Source of the DNA: Bacillota bacterium
GTDB lineage: Bacteria > Bacillota > Sulfobacillia > JACIYH01
Direction: 5' to 3'
Assembly (NCBI GenBank): GCA_014360055.1
Contig: JACIYH010000005.1
Span: 1 to 61,191, forward strand
Length of the DNA stretch: 61,191 nucleotides
In this document: positions 18,171 to 27,360 of the stretch, one piece after another
How positions within the stretch are numbered: the first letter of the stretch is position 1
Layout of the letters: each line of letters opens with the position of its first letter
The notes under the pieces: model-generated
Seen by the model: only the letters and a program-made list of their open reading frames with translations
What the model was told of the DNA's origin: nothing
The model's database searches: none
Program-made: the position numbers and the translations under genes

Positions 18171-18906
18171 GCTGGATGTTGCCCCAGGCCGCCAGGCGGG
18201 TGTCCCTGATGAGCACCGCCCCGGCGAGCCCGGGGATCTGGCGGGCCCGTTCCAGGGCAGCTGTAAGGTCATCCTCGCCGCCCACCAGGTTGCCCAGGCA
18301 GGTGGCCGCCGCATCGGCGAGGGCCCCCGAGGGCGCGACTGCCACGGCGGCATCGGCCTGCCCCAGGCTGAGGGAGTGGCCCCAGCGCCCGGCCGAGGTG
18401 CACACCGCCACCGGTTGCCCGTCGCCGGAGACCAGAAGGCCCGTGCGAAGTGAGAAGGGCGACGTCCCCGCCAGGATGGCCACCCGCCGGGGCCTGTACG
18501 TACAAATGAAGATGTCCCCGCCGTTTTCGACGATCACCTCGCGCACGCTGCCGAGGAGGGCGCGCCCCACCCGTTCGGCCACGGCGCCAGCCACCGCCGC
18601 CATGGGGCCGACCCCAGCGCAGGCGGCCGCCCGCGCCATCTCGCAAACCAGGGGCGGGGCGTGGGCGGGCAGCGTCAGCGGTACCAGGGAGGTCAGGAAG
18701 GCGGGATCCCGCCCGGCGTACCCTTCGATCTCCGACCGGGCGAGGTGCAGTGCCTGTTCTGCCCGTTGGGGCAGGTCGTCCGTCCAGCTGGAACGGTCCA
18801 CCGCCACCCACAGGTCGCTCTCGCCCTCCCGGACCCGGAAGGCCGCCAGGTCGGGACTCCCCATCACGTGCCGGTAAAACCGCTCTTCCACCTGCACGGG
18901 TATCAC
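18157..18906 (-). CDS. UPF0280/COG2122 ApbE-like protein (sulfide assimilation associated)
   Basis: ESDLWV, VGPMAAVAGAVAE, VIVENGGDIF, VCTSAGRWGHSLSLGQADA; GTGA overlap with the upstream stop. Confidence 0.85.
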   Translation of the reverse strand: MIPVQVEERFYRHVMGSPDLAAFRVREGESDLWVAVDRSSWTDDLPQRAEQALHLARSEIEGYAGRDPAFLTSLVPLTLPAHAPPLVCEMARAAACAGVGPMAAVAGAVAERVGRALLGSVREVIVENGGDIFICTYRPRRVAILAGTSPFSLRTGLLVSGDGQPVAVCTSAGRWGHSLSLGQADAAVAVAPSGALADAAATCLGNLVGGEDDLTAALERARQIPGLAGAVLIRDTRLAAWGNIQLTSL

Positions 18907-20516
18907 CTCTCCCCGGCTGACGCCGCCGGACCGGCGGCCGGTTCCGCAGCACCGGTGGTGGCCGGTTCCGCCGGGTCGACGGCGGCCGGTTCCATCACAC
19001 CGGTTGCCGCGACTCCGCGGGCCTCGGGTACCAGGGCGCCCACCGGGCAGGTATCGGCGCACAGGCCGCAGGCGGTGCACAACTGCGGTTGCCAGACCAG
19101 TTCCCAGCTTCCCCGGTCGAGTTGCAGGGCCCCGGGCAGGCAGACCGCCGTGCAGGCCCCGCAGGCCACGCACAGTTGCCCGTGGAAGATGGGTGTTCCC
19201 CCTGCGGGCGGGGCGGCCACGTGGGCCGGCGCTGCGAGCGCGTGGGCGGGCGGGGTGACCGTGCCGGCGGGCGGGATGGCTGCGCGGGCGGGGGCTGCCA
19301 CGGCGGCAGCGGTTTCGGCCCGCGCGGGCCCGTCCGCGGCGGCGTAGTAGCCGTCTGCTTCCGGGCGGGGAGGAAGGTCGAGGGTGTGGAGGGTTGTGCG
19401 CCAGGGCAGGGGGGCGACGGGCTCGGTGAGGAGGAAGCGGCCGGAGGCCACCCACTCCTTGAGCAGGGCGGCGATCTCCCGGGCCTTGTGCAGGCTGGAC
19501 AGCGGCGCCGCCGGGACCCAGCGGTCGTGGAGGCGCACGCGTCCCGAGCGCAGCTCGGCGTAGCTCACTTCTGCCACCACCGGGCGTTCGCGGTGGGGGT
19601 GGCCGTAGTCCAGGATCACCGTGCGGATATCTTCGTCCCGTACCCCCACCTGGAGGGCCAGTTCTTCGTCCAGCAGGGGGATCGCGATACCCACACCCAC
19701 GAAGAGGGTGACGCCGTAACCGGCGAAGGTGGCGGCGCGCAGGAAACGGGGGTCCATCCCGCGCAGGTCGCCCACCAGGGCCAGGGTGGCCGCCGGCCCC
19801 ACGGGGACGTCCCCGTGCCGCCTCCGGCCGGGGAAATGCTGGGTTCCCTCCCAGGCCACGTAGCCCACGCCTCCGCCCAGGAAGACCCGTGTGCCGATGC
19901 CCACCGTGCGCAGGTGAGGGTCGTTGAGCAGGGGACTCAGCTGGCCCGCGCTGCAGTAGGTGACGTTGCCGAAGCGGGGCAGGAGCTTCCCCATGTAGGT
20001 CCGGATGACCCGGTCCGAGCCGTTGGTGGCAGCGGCGTAGTTCTGGTAGCAGTTGCGGGGGTTGAAGAGGTAGGCCTGGTTCAGACCGTGCAGGCGGATG
20101 TACGTGCGCAGGTGCCGGCGCGGGTAGCAATCGGTGCCGTAGCTTTCGGCTTCCAGGAGGACGGGCTTCCCGGCCACCAGATCTTCGATGACGTGGGCGC
20201 CGCCGTATGCCATGCCCCGGCTGCGACTGAGTTCGGTGGCACCCAGGTAGGCGTCCACCGCCGCCACCCCGGCGTGGGCGGGCACGTCGTTGAGCCGGAC
20301 CGACTGCATCTTGATGGGGGGCTCGCTGTGGCCGAAGTTCAAGAACACTCCCGAGGAGCACATGGGGGCAAAGGTGGCGGTGGTGACCACATCCACCTCC
20401 TGTGCCACCCGGCGGCCCCCTTTTTCCCGTACCAGGGGGATGACTTCCTCGGCGGTAACCACCACCGCCTTCCCCTCCCGGATGCGCTGGTTGATCTCGG
20501 CGAACGTCTTGGGCAA
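18903..20516 (-). CDS. DUF39 homocysteine biosynthesis protein (aspartate semialdehyde sulfurtransferase-like) fused to a C-terminal 4Fe-4S ferredoxin
   Basis: KTFAEINQRIREGKAVVVTAEE, VDVVTTATFAPMCSSG, YGGAHVIEDL, GTDCYPR, NPRNCYQNY; C-terminal CVACGACTAVC and CTACGLCADTCP; TTG start after GGAGG. Confidence 0.88.
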   Translation of the reverse strand: MPKTFAEINQRIREGKAVVVTAEEVIPLVREKGGRRVAQEVDVVTTATFAPMCSSGVFLNFGHSEPPIKMQSVRLNDVPAHAGVAAVDAYLGATELSRSRGMAYGGAHVIEDLVAGKPVLLEAESYGTDCYPRRHLRTYIRLHGLNQAYLFNPRNCYQNYAAATNGSDRVIRTYMGKLLPRFGNVTYCSAGQLSPLLNDPHLRTVGIGTRVFLGGGVGYVAWEGTQHFPGRRRHGDVPVGPAATLALVGDLRGMDPRFLRAATFAGYGVTLFVGVGIAIPLLDEELALQVGVRDEDIRTVILDYGHPHRERPVVAEVSYAELRSGRVRLHDRWVPAAPLSSLHKAREIAALLKEWVASGRFLLTEPVAPLPWRTTLHTLDLPPRPEADGYYAAADGPARAETAAAVAAPARAAIPPAGTVTPPAHALAAPAHVAAPPAGGTPIFHGQLCVACGACTAVCLPGALQLDRGSWELVWQPQLCTACGLCADTCPVGALVPEARGVAATGVMEPAAVDPAEPATTGAAEPAAGPAASAGER

Positions 20517-20557
20517 AGCGCTTACCTCCCCCGGACGGGGGACCCCCGGGAGTCCGG

Positions 20558-20592
20558 AAAACGAAAAACGCCTCTCCGAGAGGAAGAGGCGT
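20558..20592 (-). terminator. Intrinsic terminator of the SAM riboswitch expression platform
   Basis: Minus strand reads ACGCCTCT-loop-AGAGGCGT followed by TTTTCGTTTT. Confidence 0.8.
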
Positions 20593-20605
20593 CCAGCAGC
20601 CGGAC

Positions 20606-20744
20606 CTCTCATCTCTCGGAACCCAGGGTTCCGCAGGAGTTGGCACCGTCATCACGCTGGCGGGCCTTTGCCGTCACCGGCGCGGGCCCCGTGACCGGTT
20701 GCCGGGCTTCATCGGGCCAGTCCCTCCGCCGCTCTGGATAAGAG
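20606..20744 (-). ncRNA. SAM-I (S-box) riboswitch
   Basis: Minus strand CTCTTATCCAGAG..GGAGGGACTGGCCCGATGAAGCCCGGCAACC...GGTGCCAACTCCTGC...AGATGAGAG, upstream of a homocysteine synthesis gene. Confidence 0.95.
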
Positions 20745-20892: not shown

Positions 20893-20922
20893 TTGACAAT
20901 GAGCATGGCCGGATGCTATTTT
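20893..20922 (+). promoter_or_regulatory. sigmaA promoter of the hrcA operon
   Basis: TTGACA-N18-TATTTT with TGn extension, immediately upstream of CIRCE. Confidence 0.7.
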
Positions 20923-20933
20923 CTTGTTGGGTT

Positions 20934-20960
20934 TTAGCACTCCGCCCGTGGGAGTGCTAA
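20934..20960 (+). promoter_or_regulatory. CIRCE element (HrcA operator)
   Basis: Perfect TTAGCACTC-N9-GAGTGCTAA. Confidence 0.97.
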
Positions 20961-20969
20961 GGTGGAACG

Positions 20970-22007
20970 GTGGACGAACGCAAGCGCAGGATACTCCAGG
21001 CCATAGTCGAAGATTACGTGCTCACCGCCGAGCCGGTGGGCTCACGTACCATTGCCCGCAAGTACGGGCTGGGCGTGAGCGCGGCCACCATCCGCAACGA
21101 GATGGCGGACCTGGAAGAAATGGGGTACGTGGAGCAGCCCCATGCCTCGGCAGGGCGCATCCCGTCCGACCGCGGTTACCGGTTTTACGTTGATGAACTC
21201 ATGGAAGTGAAGCCCCTTCCGCCCTGGGTGGTGGAACGGGTGCAGGAGTTGTGCGAGGGGCGCGTCCGGGCCATGGAGGCGGTACTCCAGCAGGTGGCCC
21301 GGCTGCTGAGCGAGGTCACCAACTCCCTTGCCATCCTGGTGGGTCCCCAGGCCGGAGAGATGGTGTTCCGCAGCCTGGACCTGGTTCCGGTGGGGCCATC
21401 CCGTGCCCTGCTGGTGGCGGTGGCCGACCTGGGCCTGCTGGAGTCGGGCATGGTGGAGGTTCCCGCCGACCTAACCCCGGCTGAACTCCACTACATCTCT
21501 CAGGTGCTCACCCGCGGCCTGCGGGGTTTGTCCGTCCAGGCCCTCAGCCACACCATCCTCCGGGAACTGCAGGCCGAACTGGCGCGTTACCGCCAGGTGC
21601 TGGAACAGGTCCTGGAGATACTGGTGGCTTCGGCCCGGGAGCAGGTCCCGGACCGCATGTACCTGGTGGGCCTCAGCACCCTGCTTTCCCAGCCCGAGTT
21701 CCATGACCGGGAACGGCTGCGGGCGGTCATCTCCGTCCTCGAGCAGGAGGTGCTGGCGAAGTACCTCCTCATGGTCTCGACTGAGCGGGAGCAGGAGGCG
21801 GGGGTAACGGTGAGCATCGGCCGGGAGAACCCCCTGGGTGAGGTGCGCGACCTCAGCCTGGTGTTCACCCCGTATCGGGTGGGGGTGTCCCGGGGAAGGC
21901 TGGCCGTGGTCGGTCCCAAGCGCATGGACTACGGCCGCGTGGTGGGGGCGGTGGCGGATTTCGAGCGTCTGCTGAGCGATCTCCTGGGGAGGTGGGCCCT
22001 GGTGTGA
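20970..22007 (+). CDS. hrcA: Heat-inducible transcription repressor HrcA
   Basis: AEPVGSRT, SAATIRNEMADLEEMG, QPHASAGRIPSDRGYRFYVD, GPKRMDY. Confidence 0.96.
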   Translation: MDERKRRILQAIVEDYVLTAEPVGSRTIARKYGLGVSAATIRNEMADLEEMGYVEQPHASAGRIPSDRGYRFYVDELMEVKPLPPWVVERVQELCEGRVRAMEAVLQQVARLLSEVTNSLAILVGPQAGEMVFRSLDLVPVGPSRALLVAVADLGLLESGMVEVPADLTPAELHYISQVLTRGLRGLSVQALSHTILRELQAELARYRQVLEQVLEILVASAREQVPDRMYLVGLSTLLSQPEFHDRERLRAVISVLEQEVLAKYLLMVSTEREQEAGVTVSIGRENPLGEVRDLSLVFTPYRVGVSRGRLAVVGPKRMDYGRVVGAVADFERLLSDLLGRWALV

Positions 22008-22071
22008 GTGGGGGCCTCACCGCCCCGGGTCCGCGGTACCCGCATTTTTTTTGTGACAGGGAGGTTCTTAG

Positions 22072-23664
22072 ATGGCACTGAAGCAGGTGGCGTCCGGCGC
22101 CGAGATCGACGAAAAGCTCGCGGCCCTTTTGACCAATGCCAACGCGGTACGCGCCATTGCCTCCGCCGTGGAGGGCACCATCGGGCCCAAAGGGCTGAAC
22201 ACGCTGCTCGTCGATCGCTTCGGGGACGTGACCATCACCAACGACGGGGTCACCATCCTCACCAAGATGGACGTCAACCATCCGGCGGCCCGCATGGTCA
22301 TCAACGTGGCGCGGGCCCAGGAGCAGGAGGTGGGTGACGGGACCACCACCGCCACCATCATGGCCGGTGCCTTGCTGACCGAAGGTGTGAACCAGGCGGT
22401 GCGGGGGGTGCCGGTGACGCGCATCATCGAGGGGGTTAAGCTGGGCATCCGCAAGGCCATCGAAGAGGTGGAGGCCAGGTCGCGACCGGTGAGCGGGGTG
22501 GACGATCCCGTCCTGCGCCGGGTGGCTTACGTCTCCGGACGGGAACAGGAGGACATCGCCGACCTGGCGGTCCGGGCGGCCGCCCTGGTGGGCCGGGAGA
22601 AGCTCCTGGACCGGTCCTTCAAGCTTTCCGATACCGTGGTGGCCAAAGCGGGGGCCGAGAACGAGGTCTTCCTGGGCGTGATAGTGGACAAGCAGCGCAC
22701 CAACAAAGAGATGCCCAAAGAGGTAGCGCCGGTGCGGGTGCTGGTGGTGGACGACGCCCTGGAGCCCGAGGAGATCGAGGAGGAGGCCCTGGGCACCGAG
22801 GCGGGTTTCAACCGGTACATGCAGCTCCAGGAGGAATTCCGGGCTAACGTGCGCAAGGTGATCTCCCTCGGGGTCAACCTGGTGGTGGTGGACCGGGGTG
22901 TAGACGAGGTGGCAGAGGAGATGTTCACCGACGCCGGGGTGATGGTGCTGCAGCGGGTTTCCTCACGGGAGTTGCGCCAGGTGGCCGAGCACACCGGGGC
23001 CCGGGCGGTCAAGCGCACCGCCCTGCGTAAGGAGCCGGCGGAACTCGAGAAGTACCTGGGAGCGGCCGACCGGGCCTATGAGGACGAGAAGCTGGAGCAC
23101 GTACGGGTACTGGGTGGCAGGGGCAAGCCCATGGCCACCATCCTGGTGGGTGCTGCCACCCAGGAGGTGGTGGGAGAGCGCGAGCGCATCGCCAAAGACG
23201 CCACCTCCGCAGTGCAGGCGGCGGTGCGGGGGGGCGTAGTCGCCGGCGGCGGGGCCATTGAGTTGGCCGTCTCCCGGGAAGTGGAGAAGCTGCGGGCGAG
23301 CGTACGCGGCATGGCGGCATACGGGGTGGACTGTGTGGCGGAAGCCCTCAAGAAGCCGCTCTCCCAGATCGTGGCCAATGCCGGCTTCAACCCCCTTGAG
23401 AAGGTGGGGGACGTGATGGCCGCCCAGGTGGAGAGGGGTTCCGACTCGCTGGCCGTCGACTGCGACACCGGCGAAGTGGTGGACATGTACGAGGCGGGTG
23501 TCCTTGACCCCACTCCCGTCAAGACCTACGCCCTGCGGGCGGCGGGGGAGATCGCGGAGGCTATCCTGCGCATCGACACCATCATAAAGAAGAAGGATGA
23601 GGGAGGACCCGGCCAGCAGGGCGGAGAAGAAGGCGCGGCCGGCGAGGACGAGCCGGATTTCTGA
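22072..23664 (+). CDS. Thermosome-like TCP-1/cpn60 chaperonin (bacterial group III type)
   Basis: GTIGPKGLNTLLVD, ITNDGVTIL, VNHPAARM, EVGDGTTTA, GGGAIE, AILRID; lacks the GroEL N-terminus, the GGM tail and an adjacent groES. Confidence 0.9.
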   Translation: MALKQVASGAEIDEKLAALLTNANAVRAIASAVEGTIGPKGLNTLLVDRFGDVTITNDGVTILTKMDVNHPAARMVINVARAQEQEVGDGTTTATIMAGALLTEGVNQAVRGVPVTRIIEGVKLGIRKAIEEVEARSRPVSGVDDPVLRRVAYVSGREQEDIADLAVRAAALVGREKLLDRSFKLSDTVVAKAGAENEVFLGVIVDKQRTNKEMPKEVAPVRVLVVDDALEPEEIEEEALGTEAGFNRYMQLQEEFRANVRKVISLGVNLVVVDRGVDEVAEEMFTDAGVMVLQRVSSRELRQVAEHTGARAVKRTALRKEPAELEKYLGAADRAYEDEKLEHVRVLGGRGKPMATILVGAATQEVVGERERIAKDATSAVQAAVRGGVVAGGGAIELAVSREVEKLRASVRGMAAYGVDCVAEALKKPLSQIVANAGFNPLEKVGDVMAAQVERGSDSLAVDCDTGEVVDMYEAGVLDPTPVKTYALRAAGEIAEAILRIDTIIKKKDEGGPGQQGGEEGAAGEDEPDF

Positions 23665-23699
23665 ATCCCTGCCTGCTGGGCGGGTGTGGCCCGGGAGGG

Positions 23700-24026
23700 G
23701 TGGCTTTGCAGAATCCACCCGCGCCCAACGCTGGTGATCCCCTGGCACCGGCGGGGGAGGATCCCCTGGTACTGAAGGTGGCGGGGTACCTGGCGGACGT
23801 CTTCCGGGAGCGCACCGGGGTGGATGTGCGTTCGGACCCGGCGGCGTGGGACAAAGTCGTGCGGGCGGCACGGCGGGCGCGCCGGGAACTGGGGCGCTCC
23901 ACCGCGTACAATGTGTCCCTTCCGTTCCTGTTGAAGGGGACCGAAGGACCCCTTCACCTGGACGTAGTGATCACCCAGCGCCAGTTCCTCGAACTCATGA
24001 TGGGGGAGGCACCCGAGGAGGCTTAG
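23700..24026 (+). CDS. Stand-alone DnaK/Hsp70 subdomain IIB-like protein (108 aa)
   Basis: NAGDPLAPAGED..YLADVFRERTGVDVRSDPAAWDKVVRAARRARRELG..NVSLPFL...GPLHLDVVITQRQFLEL aligns by eye with DnaK NGDTHLGGED..LADEFKKE.GIDLRKD.MALQRLKEAAEKAKIELS..INLPFI..GPKHL...LTRAKFEEL; RBS GGGAGGGG. Confidence 0.7.
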   Translation: MALQNPPAPNAGDPLAPAGEDPLVLKVAGYLADVFRERTGVDVRSDPAAWDKVVRAARRARRELGRSTAYNVSLPFLLKGTEGPLHLDVVITQRQFLELMMGEAPEEA

Positions 24027-24029
24027 GCT

Positions 24030-25139
24030 TTGCCAGAGCGGCGGAATTACTACGAGATCCTCGGTGTGGGCCGGGATGCCAGCCCCGATGAGATCAAGAA
24101 GGCGTACCGGCGCCTGGCGCGGCAGTACCACCCGGACGCCAATCCCGGGGACCCCACCGCCGAGGAGAAGTTCAAGCAAATAAACGAAGCGTACGCCGTC
24201 CTGTCTGACCCCGAGAAGCGCGCCCGCTACGATGCCTATGGTGAGGTGGGGGGCGCCGCTGACCTGGGGAGTCCTTTTGCCGGCATCCAGGACCTCTTCG
24301 ATATGTTTTTCGGTACCGGTCGCCCCCGGGGCCCGCGGCCGCGGGAACCCAAGCGCGGGGCTGACCTGCGCCTTGACCTGGACATCACGCTGGAAGAAGC
24401 ATTTTCCGGGGTGGAGAAGGAGCTGGAAGTGCCGCGCGTGGAGCGGTGTCCCATTTGCGACGGCACCGGCGCCCGACCCGGTAGTCCGCCGGCGACCTGC
24501 TCCCGCTGCCGCGGGACCGGGCAGGTGGAGACGGTGTCCGACAGCCTGCTGGGGCGGTTCGTTTCCATCCGGACCTGTCCCACCTGCGGCGGTGAGGGCA
24601 CGGTGGTGACCGACCCCTGCCCGGACTGCGGCGGCCTGGGGCGCGTGCGCCGGGTGAGGCACATCCGGGTGAAGGTGCCCGCCGGGGCAGACAGTGGCCT
24701 GCGGTTGCGCCTGGCCGAAGAGGGAGAGCCCGGCACCCGGGGCGGACCGCCCGGTGACCTCTACGTGGACATCCACGTGCGGCCCCACCGGTTCTTCCGC
24801 CGGGACGGTGATGACCTGCACTGCGAAGTGACGGTCAGCTTCATCCAGGCCGCCCTGGGGACCCTGCTCGAGATCCCCACGCTGGACGGGTCCGCCCGCG
24901 TAAAGGTACCCGAGGGTACCCAACCGGGAGCGGTGGTGCGCCTGCGGGGCGCAGGTATGCCCCGGTTGCGCGGGGGGGGCCGGGGGGACCTGCACGTGCA
25001 CCTTGACGTGCGCACACCCACCGGGCTGAGTCCCCGCGAAAAGGAGCTGTTGCGGGAGCTGGCCGCCATCCGCGGCGAGGGCGTGAAGGAGAAGGATAAG
25101 GGGCTATGGGGGCGCGTGAAGGAAGCGTGGAACAGTTGA
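24030..25139 (+). CDS. dnaJ: Molecular chaperone DnaJ
   Basis: YYEILGV, HPD, four CxxCxGxG repeats, C-terminal domain. Confidence 0.96.
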
Positions 25140-25921
25140 GCCGCCCCCACGCCCGCTTCGCCGTAGAGGCGACGGCCATCCGGGGGGACGAGGTGACCTT
25201 CGGGCCCGAGACGGCGCGGCAACTGGCGCGCGTCTTACGCTTCCGGCCGGGTGAAGTCCTGACGGTGTTGGTGGAGGGCCGCGAGATCGCCGTCCGCCTC
25301 GAGCACCTGGAACCCGGGCGGGCAAGGGGGCGGGTGCTGGGACCCGTCGAACGTTTCAGCGAGCCCGGCCTGACGGTGGCCGTCGTGCAGGCCCTCCTCA
25401 AGGGAGATCGCACCGACCTGGTGGTCCAGAAGGCCACCGAACTGGGGGCCAGCCACATCTTCCCCGTGGTGACCGCCCGTACGGTGGTCCGGCCCGAGGC
25501 GGGCACCGGCCGCCTGAGGCGGTGGGAAAAGATCGCCCGCGAGGCGGCGGAGCAATCCCTGCGCACCCGGGTGCCCGCGCTCCATCCCCCGCAGGATCTG
25601 GCAGCCGCCGTCGGGCAGGCGCGGGACCTGTTACCGCAGGCCGGCCTGATCGTGCTGTGGGAGGAAGAGGAGCGGGTGGGTCTCTGGGATCTCCTGCCGT
25701 GCGTGGGGCCGGATATCATACTGGTGATGGGGCCCGAAGGAGGGCTCACCCGTCAGGAGGTGGATGGTATCCTGGCCCTGGGAGGCAGGTCCGCCAGCCT
25801 GGGCACCCGCATCCTCCGTTCGGAGACGGCGACCCTGGCCGCCCTCACCCTGGTACTGGCGGCCCGCGGTGAACTGGGCCGGGCTCCCGGAAGACCGGCG
25901 GAGAGGGGTTCCCCGGCTTGA
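25127..25921 (+). CDS. rsmE: 16S rRNA m3U1498 methyltransferase RsmE
   Basis: [32 protein letters not shown]. Confidence 0.92.
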
Positions 25922-27360
25922 CGGAAGGAGCACCCCGGGGGAAGGTAGCATTTGCCACCCTGGGTTGCAAGGTCAACCGGTACGACACCGAAGCCATGGC
26001 CGGGCTCTTCCGCCGGGCGGGGTGGCGGGTAGTGGGCTTCCGCGACGTTGCGGATGTATACGTGGTCAACACCTGCACGGTGACCGCCCGCAGCGAGGCC
26101 GAGTCGCGCCAGTTGGTGAGGCAGTCGCGCCGCCGCAACCCCGGTGCCCTGGTGGTGGTGTGCGGTTGCTATCCCCAGGTTAAGGGGGCAGAGGCGCTCG
26201 CGGCCACCGGCGCGGACGTGGTGCTGGGAACGCGCGGACGGGGTGATATCGTCTCTCTGGTGGAGCGGGCTCTGGGAGGAGAACGGCCCCTGGTGGAGGT
26301 CGAGCCCTTCTCTGCGGACACCGGGGCTGACCGCACCGGTCCCGGCGAGCGCGGCGACCTGTACGGATGGGGTTCGCGGGAGGCGGGCCGGGCGGGGGCC
26401 GGCGAGCCCGGGGAGGCCGAGGCGCCGCCATACGAGGAAGTGCCCGTGGAAAGCGAGGGTCGCACCCGTGCCGTGGTGAAGGTTCAGGAAGGCTGTGACG
26501 TGCGCTGTACATACTGCATCGTCCCCGCCGCCCGGGGACCCGCGCGCAGCCGCGACCCCGGGGCGGCCCTGGCGGAGGTCCGCCGCCTGGTGGCGGCCGG
26601 CTTTCGGGAGGTCGTGCTTACAGGGGTCCAACTCGGTGCTTACGGGCGCGACCGGGGTATGCCGGAGGGCCTGGCCACCCTGGTAAGCCGGATGGCGGCC
26701 ACGGAAGGGTTGTGGAGGTTGCGCCTCAGTTCCCTCGAGCCGATGGACTTGAGCGACCGGCTGCTGGAGGTCATCGCCCGCCACCGGGTGGTGTGCCCCC
26801 ACCTGCACCTTCCCCTGCAGAGCGGCTCGGACCGTATCCTGGCCGCCATGGGGCGCCCCTACCGGGCCGCGGACTATCTGCGCCTGGTGGAGCGGTCGAG
26901 GGAGAAGGTGCCCGGCCTGGCCCTCTCCACCGACGTCATGGTGGGTTTCCCGGGGGAAACGGAGGAGGATTTTGCCGCCACCGTGCGCCTGGTAGAGCAG
27001 GTAGGTTTCATGCGCCTGCACGTGTTCCCCTACTCGCCCCGTCCGGGCACGCCGGCCGCCGCGTTGCCCGCCCGGGTACCCGACCGGGTGAAGGAGGAAA
27101 GGGCACGCGTGTTGCGTGAAGTGGGCGCGCGTCTGGCGCGGGCTTTTGCTCTCCCCTTCGTGGAGCGGGTGGTGGAGGTGCTGGCGGAGCGCGAGCAGGA
27201 GGGCCTGGTGTCGGGGTTGACCCGGCACTACCTGCGCGTCGGCTTCCCCGGCGGAGCGGATCTGGAAGGGAAGCTGGTCGAGGTGCGCGTCACTGCCGTG
27301 ACCGTGGAGGGTGTGCGGGGAGACCTGGTGGGGGTGCTGCCGGGCCCGCGTGAGGAATAG
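25918..27360 (+). CDS. mtaB: tRNA ms2t6A37 methylthiotransferase MtaB
   Basis: TLGCKVN, NTCTVT, CGCYPQ, radical SAM CDVRCTYC, TDVMVGFPGET, HVFPYSPRPGT, TRAM domain. Confidence 0.92.
   Translation: MTEGAPRGKVAFATLGCKVNRYDTEAMAGLFRRAGWRVVGFRDVADVYVVNTCTVTARSEAESRQLVRQSRRRNPGALVVVCGCYPQVKGAEALAATGADVVLGTRGRGDIVSLVERALGGERPLVEVEPFSADTGADRTGPGERGDLYGWGSREAGRAGAGEPGEAEAPPYEEVPVESEGRTRAVVKVQEGCDVRCTYCIVPAARGPARSRDPGAALAEVRRLVAAGFREVVLTGVQLGAYGRDRGMPEGLATLVSRMAATEGLWRLRLSSLEPMDLSDRLLEVIARHRVVCPHLHLPLQSGSDRILAAMGRPYRAADYLRLVERSREKVPGLALSTDVMVGFPGETEEDFAATVRLVEQVGFMRLHVFPYSPRPGTPAAALPARVPDRVKEERARVLREVGARLARAFALPFVERVVEVLAEREQEGLVSGLTRHYLRVGFPGGADLEGKLVEVRVTAVTVEGVRGDLVGVLPGPREE

Follow-up and report, generated by a model that had tools for sequence, protein, structure and literature searches.

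The heat-shock operon described here carries, between the genes for a group III chaperonin and DnaJ, a small gene whose product is, with high confidence, a free-standing subdomain IIB of the Hsp70 nucleotide-binding domain (NBD), which we call mini-IIB. The explanation that we favour on balance, as a whole, is that hrcA-chaperonin-mini-IIB-dnaJ-rsmE-mtaB is an HrcA/CIRCE-controlled heat-shock operon and would descend from hrcA-chaperonin-grpE-dnaK-dnaJ. The original grpE would have been lost, and dnaK too except for subdomain IIB; the cell's DnaK and GrpE would come from a second Hsp70 system, which is of another type, and mini-IIB would be a free docking module, bound by a protein whose usual landing site is the IIB of DnaK. 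This explanation builds on observations: the anatomy of the operon, the fold of the small protein, the selection on it, its distribution, and the presence of an Hsp70 system at another place in the genome. The window (the whole analysed stretch of 61,191 nucleotides) contains the following features.

20893..20922, + strand: putative sigma-70-like promoter, TTGACA-18 nt-TATTTT with TG before TATTTT (consensus match only, 10/12)
20934..20960, + strand: CIRCE, the HrcA-binding operator, a perfect inverted repeat (arm mismatches at 0/18 bases)
20970..22007, + strand: hrcA, heat-inducible repressor, 345 aa (Pfam HrcA PF01628, 1.9e-55)
22026..22052, + strand: terminator-like hairpin with T run in the hrcA/chaperonin gap, possible attenuator (pattern match only)
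22072..23664, + strand: group III (archaeal-like) chaperonin, 530 aa (Cpn60_TCP1 PF00118, 7.7e-114)
23700..24026, + strand: mini-IIB, very probably a stand-alone Hsp70 NBD subdomain IIB protein (Pfam HSP70 229-302/599, E 4.2e-8)
24016..24022, + strand: dnaJ ribosome-binding site GAGGAGG, inside the last codons of mini-IIB (read from the sequence)
24030..25139, + strand: dnaJ, type I, 369 aa (PF00226 4.4e-31, PF00684 2e-16, PF01556 1.3e-52)
25106..25921, + strand: rsmE, 16S rRNA methyltransferase family, overlapping the dnaJ end (PF04452 2.6e-41)
25918..27360, + strand: mtaB-like radical SAM methylthiotransferase (PF00919 2.2e-26, PF04055 2.4e-25)

The CIRCE reads TTAGCACTC-N9-GAGTGCTAA and has the promoter-like site directly upstream. 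Only two CIRCE sites with at most 3 arm mismatches are present in the whole 2.7 Mb genome, the other (1 arm mismatch) lying upstream of groES-groEL. Consensus matching found 3 promoter-like sites in the 8.5 kb region versus 0.6 expected, and terminator-like patterns occurred 7 times versus 3.7 expected. HrcA is 83-87% identical within the genus and 38-50% across the class. The chaperonin matches 5x9u at 6.6e-145 and the best archaeal thermosome at 4.5e-72; 5x9u, named by its depositors only as 'Thermosome, alpha subunit', we take to be the group III chaperonin of Carboxydothermus. Such a chaperonin is present in 73 of 210 genomes of the class. Translation of mini-IIB may start at GTG 23700 (108 aa) or at TTG 23706 (106 aa), the latter being better spaced from the GGGAGGGG box. 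Its stop codon is at 24024-24026, and dnaJ starts 3 bases later with TTG at 24030. The encoded DnaJ has a J domain with HPD, four CxxCxGxG repeats and the C-terminal domain. The preliminary description had listed a perfect CIRCE, hrcA, a thermosome-like chaperonin, a 108-aa ORF and dnaJ-rsmE-mtaB, and all of these lie at or near the positions it gave. It had also reported that the operon lacks grpE, full-length dnaK and prmA; Pfam gene annotation of the operon agrees, and the overlap of dnaJ and rsmE leaves no space for prmA.

The identification of mini-IIB is based on both profile and fold. Its profile hits residues 230-309 of E. coli DnaK (2e-19), and its AF2 model (pLDDT 90.2, pTM 0.80) has DnaK chains as best Foldseek matches (TMq 0.88-0.91, rmsd 0.8-1.4 A). 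Compared with subdomain IIB of DnaK (1dkg chain D, 5oow lobe II), the predicted fold is the same, with a TMq of about 0.9, and the LP(F/C), GP-H and (I/V)D motifs are retained in the mini-IIB proteins. Subdomains IA, IB and IIA and the substrate-binding domain are absent. Positions 264, 267, 270 and 274, at which 30 DnaKs vary hardly or not at all, are variable in the minis, and K294 of DnaK is never K there. The nucleotide-contact residues of DnaK have lost their conservation in the minis. We found no description of an IIB-only Hsp70 derivative in the published literature.

A complete Hsp70 system is encoded elsewhere in the same genome. Contig C109 carries a full DnaK (C109:55244-57028; Pfam HSP70 1-598, 4.6e-269), followed at the contig end by GrpE (1.5e-41). 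This end overlaps contig C140, which continues with a DnaJ of 352 aa and then ClpB. The second DnaJ lacks the CXXCXGXG domain and is thus zinc-finger-less. A MerR-family (hspR-like) gene lies directly upstream of this dnaK, so that the order is merR(hspR-like)-dnaK-grpE-dnaJ2-clpB. The whole-genome scan with up to 3 arm mismatches placed no CIRCE at this operon, and the region upstream of it yielded no canonical HAIR operator; from its adjacency, the MerR-family gene may be the regulator. The genome also encodes an additional Hsp70-like/GrpE-like pair. Thus, the whole-genome search that had been proposed located dnaK, grpE and groEL/groES outside the operon, and prefoldin was not found. As a full DnaK is encoded elsewhere, the DnaJ of the operon has an Hsp70 partner available in trans. 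The presence of DnaK-GrpE-DnaJ2-ClpB, the second Hsp70-like pair and groES-groEL is at odds with the suggested system in which the fragment and DnaJ would partner the chaperonin in place of Hsp70. The preliminary description had also stated that an intact grpE-dnaK elsewhere under CIRCE control would reduce the locus to a simple translocation or deletion. An intact dnaK-grpE does exist, but it is not under CIRCE, its gene order is reversed and its DnaK belongs to a different clade, and this points to replacement and reduction rather than simple translocation.

Comparison with relatives indicates how the operon may have arisen. Three forms occur, hrcA-chaperonin-grpE-dnaK-dnaJ, hrcA-chaperonin-IIB-dnaJ and hrcA-chaperonin-dnaJ, and the latter two accompany a second, distinct DnaK type. 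Of the 368 chaperonin loci that species-level genomes gave, the best 80 comprise 64 with chaperonin-grpE(-dnaK-dnaJ), 5 with mini-IIB and 11 with chaperonin-dnaJ. The full form is the commonest across Bacillota and is read as ancestral; the three forms bear out the earlier view that the operon in the window is a reduced version of it. A tree separates 9 in-operon DnaKs from 21 DnaKs of the dnaK-grpE type with 100% support for the separating branch. When ten full-operon genomes were compared with the DnaK of the window genome, nine gave full-length matches of only 61-67% identity and one gave none; in genomes of the reduced type the identity is 68-93%. The mean IIB identity is slightly higher to the in-operon DnaK in 13 of 16 minis and to the other type in 2, with 1 tie, and the HLD motif is common to the minis and the IIB of in-operon DnaK. 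Together with the operon position, this identity edge and motif suggest that mini-IIB derives from the in-operon DnaK. A single group of all full-operon rows was rejected (p-AU 0.021, for a group named after the tree was seen), so reduction may have occurred more than once, or operons may have been transferred between lineages. The IIB tree does not settle the number of mini-IIB origins.

The sequence evidence indicates that mini-IIB is a real gene, not a decaying relic, and that its product, of 80-108 aa, is translated independently and has been kept by purifying selection in at least 7 families. Its frame is intact in 16/16 loci from 7 families. In all 16 it lies directly 3' of the chaperonin gene, and it occurs nowhere else in those genomes. 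Six pairs gave dN/dS values of 0.14-0.32 (bootstrap upper bounds at most 0.64, dS up to about 1); in the same pairs the chaperonin gave 0.03-0.17, and rsmE and mtaB gave 0.14-0.34. When 1.84 billion representatives were searched with a profile, 17 clusters of proteins of 85-119 aa outranked the DnaK-like matches (about 85 bits or less). Between families, mini-IIB proteins are only 28-43% identical, compared with about 72% for the chaperonin across the class, and branch lengths indicate that mini-IIB evolves about ten times faster than the IIB of DnaK itself. The gene was also lost later, repeatedly, in other lineages of the class and is therefore dispensable; within one 27-row clade of the operon tree, it is kept in 12 rows and missing from 15.

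Two further explanations were weighed. The junctions around mini-IIB could be chimeric, through assembly or binning, as the source genome is a draft of 141 contigs. This is extremely improbable: a contig of 4488 bases from an independent DNA run (X2) spans 21831-25200 with 28 differing letters, shorter contigs from three more runs bridge the chaperonin/mini-IIB/dnaJ joints, and the gene order is identical in two genomes of the same genus. The chaperonin-mini-IIB-dnaJ order is present in 15 other genomes. An assembly error, which the preliminary description had considered, is thus unlikely. Alternatively, the ORF could be a leftover of dnaK whose translation, together with its 3' end carrying the ribosome-binding site of dnaJ, aids dnaJ expression. 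The position of GAGGAGG in the last codons, the stop 3 bases before the dnaJ start, the repeated loss, the long branches and the variable helices would all fit, and yet we consider this quite improbable. The dN/dS values argue against it, an unconstrained frame would have closed in some of the 16 loci at such low identity, and the core residues of the IIB fold are retained in a confident model. Moreover, where a lineage lacks the ORF, dnaJ is expressed from a gap of 25-130 bp, so a spacer ORF is unnecessary.

What the protein may do is suggested by which parts of it are kept. The best-kept segments are strands 280-287 and 295-302 and loop 248-255 (pairwise identity 0.48-0.53), and the helices and the hairpin tip reach 0.15-0.31. 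Well-kept hairpin strands combined with the lost conservation of nucleotide contacts led us to the reading as a free docking module, and GrpE is our leading, tentative candidate for the partner. According to the accessible part of PMC10825016, hairpin 276-302 of E. coli DnaK contacts GrpE, and Y285R and deletion of 285-295 lower GrpE binding about 30- and 100-fold, respectively. At the position of Y285, the minis have F (9/16) or C (7/16). When two copies of GrpE 75-237 were folded together with mini-IIB, the prediction scored 0.54 (runs 0.55, 0.54 and 0.54; contact agreement at least 85%, partner pLDDT at least 81), and the best of three controls scored 0.00. Of 80 solved complexes, 58 reached the mark used for pair folds, as did 2 of 110 mismatched pairs; at scores of 0.60 or below, however, just 7 of the 80 did so, along with both of these mismatches. 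Judged by these counts, most passes at the level of 0.54 are false unless the two proteins were likely partners to begin with. The score may also reflect model memory of solved DnaK-GrpE complexes, and we take it as weak support. Helix 255-272, a GrpE contact in the crystal structure, is poorly conserved among the minis, as is the hairpin tip, and the conservation of the hairpin strands may simply mirror the core of the fold. Removal of the tip lowers the affinity of the E. coli NBD for GrpE by no more than about 100-fold, so a lone IIB would probably bind GrpE far more weakly than the whole NBD does and be a poor competitor.

Other candidates for docking are the neighbouring chaperonin, the ClpB middle domain and HrcA. 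Within the whole DnaK, IIB may once have mediated docking on the chaperonin lid, so that mini-IIB, as a chaperonin cofactor or adaptor, would with DnaJ feed the chaperonin independently of Hsp70. The invariable position after the chaperonin gene and the missing prefoldin are consistent with this, and DnaK docking by group III chaperonins has been speculated on, with reference to the shared operon and to CCT-Hsc70, in the accessible parts of PMC5635000 and PMC5220055. We nevertheless find it doubtful. Since DnaK, GrpE, DnaJ and ClpB are all encoded in the genome, along with a second Hsp70-like pair, independence from Hsp70 is not forced, and at least 20 related loci have adjacent chaperonin and dnaJ genes (hrcA-chaperonin-dnaJ) with no mini-IIB, so the two proteins do not need it. 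The difference in identity between chaperonin and minis, with variable surfaces on the latter, is also unlike a conserved contact. Similarly unlikely is docking on the ClpB middle domain, on the NBD of the trans-encoded DnaK in an Hsp110-like manner, or on HrcA as a feedback modulator. The middle domain of ClpB binds subdomains IB and IIB, clpB is the last gene of the second dnaK operon, and the fold matches include 6w6e, a solved structure of M. tuberculosis ClpB together with a DnaK NBD. A 2026 review, in its accessible part, proposes NBD-containing DnaK paralogues as cochaperones of DnaK (PMC13580251), and the accessible text on Chlamydia describes a small heat-induced HrcA antagonist there. 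Against all three stands the variable surface of the minis, which does not suit one strongly conserved partner.

The operon can be compared with several known systems. It shares with the hrcA-chaperonin-grpE-dnaK-dnaJ operon of Carboxydothermus hydrogenoformans and other Bacillota the chaperonin family, its position directly after hrcA and the downstream dnaJ. It differs in that grpE is absent, only DnaK residues of about 230-309 persist, as a separate ORF, and working DnaK and GrpE are encoded in another operon of another type. DafA of Thermus thermophilus is a small assembly factor, encoded in dnaK-grpE-dnaJ-dafA-clpB, that binds chaperones rather than clients. By gene context alone, mini-IIB resembles it as a small protein of an Hsp70-related operon, and the second operon of the window genome shares the dnaK-grpE-dnaJ-clpB order. 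However, dafA lies in the dnaK operon itself and mini-IIB in the HrcA operon, and the 165-base dnaJ2/clpB gap of the second operon holds no listed ORF. According to the accessible parts of PMC5635000 and PMC5220055, group III chaperonins sit in the dnaK operon with one exception. The DnaK-derived paralogues HscA, YegD and the 'derivates', as far as the accessible text of PMC13580251 goes, derive from DnaK and exist beside a bona fide DnaK, as mini-IIB does, and are proposed there to be cochaperones of DnaK. They retain the whole NBD, whereas mini-IIB is one subdomain of about 80 residues. If mini-IIB does dock on GrpE, its production from the HrcA-controlled promoter upon heat shock would modulate nucleotide exchange on the DnaK that the genome encodes outside this operon.

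The hrcA operon of the window (contig C87) lies in a draft genome of 2.7 Mb in 141 contigs with a G+C content of about 69%. Its order of CIRCE, hrcA, chaperonin gene, small open reading frame (ORF), dnaJ, rsmE and mtaB-like gene, as read in the preliminary description, was confirmed, and grpE, full-length dnaK and prmA were indeed absent from the operon. The features are as follows.

20893-20922, plus strand: promoter-like site TTGACA-18-TATTTT, a consensus pattern upstream of the CIRCE
20934-20960, plus strand: CIRCE TTAGCACTC-N9-GAGTGCTAA, with 0 arm mismatches, 11 bases past the -10-like hexamer
20970-22007, plus strand: hrcA (PF01628, 1.9e-55)
22026-22052, plus strand: hairpin with T run between hrcA and the chaperonin gene, a pattern match alone
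22072-23664, plus strand: Cpn60/TCP-1 chaperonin gene, directly after hrcA
23700-24026, plus strand: small ORF (mini-IIB)
24030-25139, plus strand: type I dnaJ (PF00226, PF00684, PF01556), with the HPD motif and four CxxCxGxG repeats
25106-25921, plus strand: rsmE
25918-27360, plus strand: mtaB-like gene

The small ORF most likely starts at the TTG at 23706, seven bases past a GGGAGGGG box, and the GAGGAGG box of dnaJ lies inside its last codons. An operator near a promoter-like site and the gene of the HrcA repressor are both present, as features of an HrcA/CIRCE regulon. When the whole genome was scanned with the CIRCE consensus, allowing at most 3 arm mismatches, two sites were found in all, the other one (C132:4289-4315) being upstream of groES and groEL. 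The gene prmA usually lies between dnaJ and rsmE. Here it is missing and dnaJ and rsmE overlap by 34 bases (25106-25139); in relatives from beyond the genus, about 1 kb separates the two genes. When the genome was searched for the PrmA family, larger frames matched its methyltransferase core in part, and no frame matched it over its full length. Divergent from the operon, on the minus strand (18903-20612), lies a gene for a homocysteine-biosynthesis protein (HcyBio, PF01837) whose C-terminal domain is a 4Fe-4S ferredoxin, a gene which is syntenic within the genus but co-oriented with the operon there.

The small ORF of 106-108 aa aligns with positions 229-302 of the 599 positions of the Pfam HSP70 profile, which found neither a complete actin-like nucleotide-binding domain (NBD; IA, IB, IIA, and IIB) nor a substrate-binding domain in it. 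With a profile built from ten relatives, E. coli DnaK (1dkg) is matched at residues 230-309 with 2e-19, and this stretch is subdomain IIB of the NBD. The AlphaFold2 model based on 16 sequences (pLDDT 90.2, pTM 0.80) has helices at residues 2-19, 27-44, and 73-81 and strands at 49-59 and 64-72, and it fits DnaK chains with a TMq of 0.88-0.91 and an rmsd of 0.8-1.4 Å. In the predicted structure, a pair of helices is followed by a beta-hairpin and a last helix, as in the IIB fold, and these elements superpose on DnaK 230-309. We searched 210 genomes of the class to which this genome belongs for IIB; the profile gave 15 genomes with a high-scoring short-frame match and tblastn gave one more. All 16 matches sit between the chaperonin gene and dnaJ, the open frame is intact in each of them, and the carriers belong to seven families (f1, f13, f14, f17, f23, f26, and f39). 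Identity to the protein of the window is 73-78% in the genus and 28-43% outside it. In six pairs the dN/dS of the small ORF was 0.14-0.32, with bootstrap upper bounds of at most 0.64, and in the same pairs it was 0.03-0.17 for the chaperonin gene, 0.05-0.24 for dnaJ and 0.14-0.34 for rsmE and mtaB. A profile search of 1.84 billion representatives gave 17 clusters of proteins of 85-119 aa that score above the DnaK-like run, which begins at about 85 bits; many shorter matches below that level may be cut DnaK genes and were left uncounted. Given the intact frames, the dN/dS values and these clusters, the small ORF codes for a protein and is under purifying selection, and it evolves at about the rate of rsmE and mtaB. 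Only seven close relatives of the small protein came out of a word-based homologue search, and a look-up in the ESM Atlas found only clusters of short Hsp70 pieces, which may be genuine small genes or truncated gene calls. Among the small proteins related to that of the window, one carries the plain annotation "Hsp70 family protein" in a public record. In one carrier (G088, L048:8550-9980), about 1.4 kb of other DNA lies between the IIB ORF and dnaJ, and tight coupling of the two is therefore not universal.

An assembly artefact is ruled out by contigs from independent runs that cross the junctions. Twenty of the runs listed, which belong to 13 studies, contain the stretch 20900-25200 wholly or partly, and the source sample may be among them. 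A contig of 4488 bases from an independent DNA run spans 21831-25200 with 28 differing letters. Three further runs gave contigs of 845, 591, and 323 bases, each of which joins the end of the chaperonin gene to the small ORF in whole or in part; those of 845 and 591 bases also reach the start of dnaJ. The 845-base contig, which covers 23454-24298, comes from an RNA library; this is a hint of transcription, short of proof, and says nothing on heat induction. By their record labels, the samples with near-identical DNA are oil-field, oil-production, subsurface, groundwater and hot-spring metagenomes.

The preliminary description had proposed that DnaJ, the DnaK fragment and the chaperonin work together instead of Hsp70, and it had called for a genome-wide search for dnaK, grpE and groEL/groES. 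All of these genes were found outside the operon of the window, at the following places.

C132:2345-3844: groEL, with groES behind the second CIRCE
C132:3941-4213: groES, downstream of the second CIRCE
C109:55244-57028: full-length dnaK, followed by GrpE at the contig end
C109:54769-57930 and C140 4338-8323 (reverse strand), two contigs: merR-family gene, dnaK, grpE, dnaJ without zinc finger, clpB

The end of C109 overlaps that of C140 with a few differences, and C140 goes on with a DnaJ of 352 aa that lacks the zinc-finger domain and then with ClpB. Directly upstream of this dnaK is a MerR-family gene (PF13411, 2.7e-14) that by its position looks like hspR. The genome scan (at most 3 arm mismatches) found no CIRCE upstream of this second dnaK operon, and the canonical HAIR operator, CTTGAGT-N7-ACTCAAG, was not found at this locus with up to 2 mismatches, the three sites in the genome all being elsewhere. 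There is no dafA-like ORF among the listed ORFs between its dnaJ and clpB. A further contig (C51:25210-30439; L002, L008, and L015) carries a second pair, made up of the genes for an Hsp70-like protein (619 aa) and for a GrpE-like protein that is long (408 aa), between those for a TPR protein of 674 aa and a clostripain-family (Peptidase_C11) protein of 779 aa. The full DnaK-GrpE run and the C51 pair rule out an Hsp70-free cell, and DnaJ therefore has partners in trans. The earlier interpretation is thus supported only in part, as a system that works instead of Hsp70 is not supported. Prefoldin was not found in the genome, the completeness of which is 99.8%.

Among solved structures, the chaperonin is closest to 9rwq, a reconstructed "ancestral group II chaperonin" (4.4e-212), and to 5x9u (6.6e-145), which we take to be the group III chaperonin of Carboxydothermus and which its depositors name only "Thermosome, alpha subunit." Archaeal thermosomes follow at 4.5e-72 and weaker, and because the first two are well ahead of them, we consider the protein a group III chaperonin. 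Proteins of this group are 16-mers with a built-in lid and without the nucleotide-sensing loop. GroEL is encoded by a separate gene in the genome, with 270 bits versus 382 on the Pfam model. The chaperonin is encoded in an hrcA operon of which the dnaK part is reduced. In the text available of PMC5635000, which covers 195 group III chaperonins, and of PMC5220055, the genes of this group are located in the dnaK operon with one exception. Two relatives (G024, L041:7776-8634; G042, L047:5386-6200) have an insert of 810-860 bases in the chaperonin gene past about codon 38. It holds an open frame of its own, and the leftover chaperonin frame begins near residue 31-37. In-frame stops at both ends of the insert rule out an intein.

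A group III chaperonin is present in 73 of the 210 genomes of the class, and 49 of the 72 other loci were compared with that of the window, 50 in all. The full order hrcA-cpn-grpE-dnaK-dnaJ, where cpn is the chaperonin gene, was found at 10 of these loci and the form with mini-IIB at 16. A further 22 have neither grpE-dnaK nor mini-IIB, 20 of them with a gap of 25-130 bp between cpn and dnaJ and 2 with an unrelated gene of about 300 aa; contig ends cut the remaining 2. The two slot genes, both in family f53 (G201, L063:5021-5956; G203, L069:6578-7569), contain a nucleotidyltransferase-like GS-x-DLD stretch, as judged by eye from the translation. In a wider set with one genome per species, grpE follows the chaperonin gene in 64 of the best 80 of 368 confirmed loci, mini-IIB does so in 5, and 11 have the order cpn-dnaJ. 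By record title, the loci with grpE include Sporomusa, Pelotomaculum, Thermincola and Desulfotomaculaceae. Because of this predominance, we take the full operon to be ancestral.

The two reduced forms differ from the full one in the DnaK that their genomes encode. In 20 genomes with a reduced operon, DnaK is encoded in a dnaK-grpE run, joined by the second dnaJ in 8 and by clpB as well in 5, and it is 68-93% identical to the DnaK of the window's genome. The in-operon DnaKs are only 57-65% identical to that protein, and of the ten genomes with a full operon, nine gave full-length matches of 61-67% only and one gave none. A tree of 30 sequences separates the in-operon DnaKs from those of the dnaK-grpE type with full support. 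Reduced operons therefore go together with a second type of Hsp70 system. Simple translocation of grpE-dnaK can be ruled out, as in the other operon the gene order is reversed, CIRCE is lacking and the DnaK belongs to another clade. Since what is left of the first type is found together with the second, the second did not arise by a move of the first but was added and then took its place. The mini-IIB proteins have a slightly higher mean identity to the IIB of in-operon DnaKs in 13 of 16 cases, the other type being favoured in 2 and 1 being a tie, and an HLD motif is common to mini-IIB and the in-operon DnaKs.

The order of events was approached with a tree of hrcA, chaperonin gene and dnaJ with 50 rows, in which the full operons are basal and paraphyletic. 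A clade of 27 rows (SH-aLRT 96) contains reduced types only, and the rows with mini-IIB are scattered in it among rows without it, a pattern that fits repeated loss of the small gene. In a second clade of 14 rows, all three types are mixed. Forcing the 12 full or undetermined rows together, a group that was named after the tree had been seen, gave a p-AU of 0.021 in the AU test, and this rejection is a caution and not a result. The tree of IIB alone (83 columns) is dominated by the very long branches of the minis, 14 of 16 of which stand apart from the DnaKs, and two minis of family f23 nest among them. Reduction to IIB happened either once, with later exchange of operons, or several times.

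Which function the small protein has kept may be approached from the positions that it has kept. Q260, R261, E264, E267, K270, E272, S274, and K294 show little or no variation among 30 DnaKs and do vary in 16 minis. E267, K270, and S274 (E. coli numbering) presumably line the nucleotide cleft, and because such positions vary, mini-IIB is unlikely, judged by its residues, to bind nucleotide. The best-kept segments are the loop 248-255 and both strands of the hairpin, with a mean pairwise identity of 0.48-0.53, and the values for the helices and the hairpin tip are 0.15-0.31. According to the available text of PMC10825016, the E. coli hairpin 276-302 touches the helical bundle of GrpE, and the Kd goes from 3.8 nM to 120 nM with Y285R and to 440 nM when 285-295 is deleted. 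The hairpin 276-302 is present in the minis, with F at position 285 in 9 of 16 and C in 7. A predicted complex of mini-IIB with two copies of GrpE 75-237 scored 0.54, the best of three controls scoring 0.00. At least 85% of contacts are shared between the runs, with a partner pLDDT of at least 81. The prediction gives weak support. Of 80 solved complexes, 58 come up to the mark for such scores, and of 110 mismatched pairs, 2 do; with scores of 0.60 or below, those that come up to it are only 7 of the 80 and both of the passing mismatches. As DnaK-GrpE complexes have been solved, the score may also reflect a memory of the family rather than binding by this copy. Docking of mini-IIB on GrpE, as modelled, is therefore a tentative proposal that we hold to be possible and still somewhat unlikely.

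The partner might instead be another protein that uses IIB, such as ClpB, DnaK, or HrcA, or it might be the chaperonin, and we regard each of the two as quite improbable. For the chaperonin, the position of the small gene directly after cpn can be set beside the literature, where a link between group III chaperonins and Hsp70 is suspected: contact with DnaK is a speculation in the text available of PMC5635000 and PMC5220055, and the literature searched contained no demonstration of it in the parts covered. In a more specific form, DnaK would dock on the lid of group III chaperonins through IIB, and this piece would have stayed on as a heat-induced chaperonin cofactor of its own once a DnaK of foreign type had replaced the in-operon one. 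We give this scenario a small chance; if it were true, the small protein would lead straight to the contact between DnaK and chaperonin that has long been suspected in bacteria. The pair CCT-Hsc70 is reportedly the subject of Cuellar et al. 2008. That the small ORF has no protein-level function, in spite of the selection on its frame, is highly doubtful. Functions that we have not named take the probability that remains after GrpE, another partner, the chaperonin and none.

Subdomain IIB also occurs as a repeat in unrelated proteins retrieved by the profile search (P0008, P0009, P0011, P0022, P0023, P0027, P0029, and P0031). Their architectures include TIR with two IIB copies (326 aa), two IIB copies alone (163 aa), FHA with two to three IIB-like copies and, at the C terminus, a hydrophobic stretch (proteins of 303-927 aa), and a protein of 1305 aa with InlB-type repeats. 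We know of no description of such architectures. The repeats in TIR and FHA proteins suggest that IIB is in wider use as a stand-alone module. In the text covered by the literature searches, we found neither an IIB-only Hsp70 derivative nor an hrcA-cpn-dnaJ or other dnaK-less group III chaperonin operon, and the DnaK derivatives in the available text of a 2026 review (PMC13580251) keep the whole NBD. The operon type and the fold were already known; the subdomain-only gene and the history of replacement are new as far as we found.

The class thus offers a natural series of three operon forms, with the full DnaK, with only one of its subdomains, or with neither, and both reduced forms go hand in hand with an Hsp70 system of the second type that has taken the place of the first. 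A single NBD subdomain that is a selected gene of its own would be, as far as we have searched, an undescribed kind of Hsp70 derivative. IIB is the landing place of nucleotide-exchange factors, and of ClpB too. For this reason, a free IIB is a simple candidate regulator of the Hsp70 cycle, or it may be a handle on the contact between DnaK and chaperonin.
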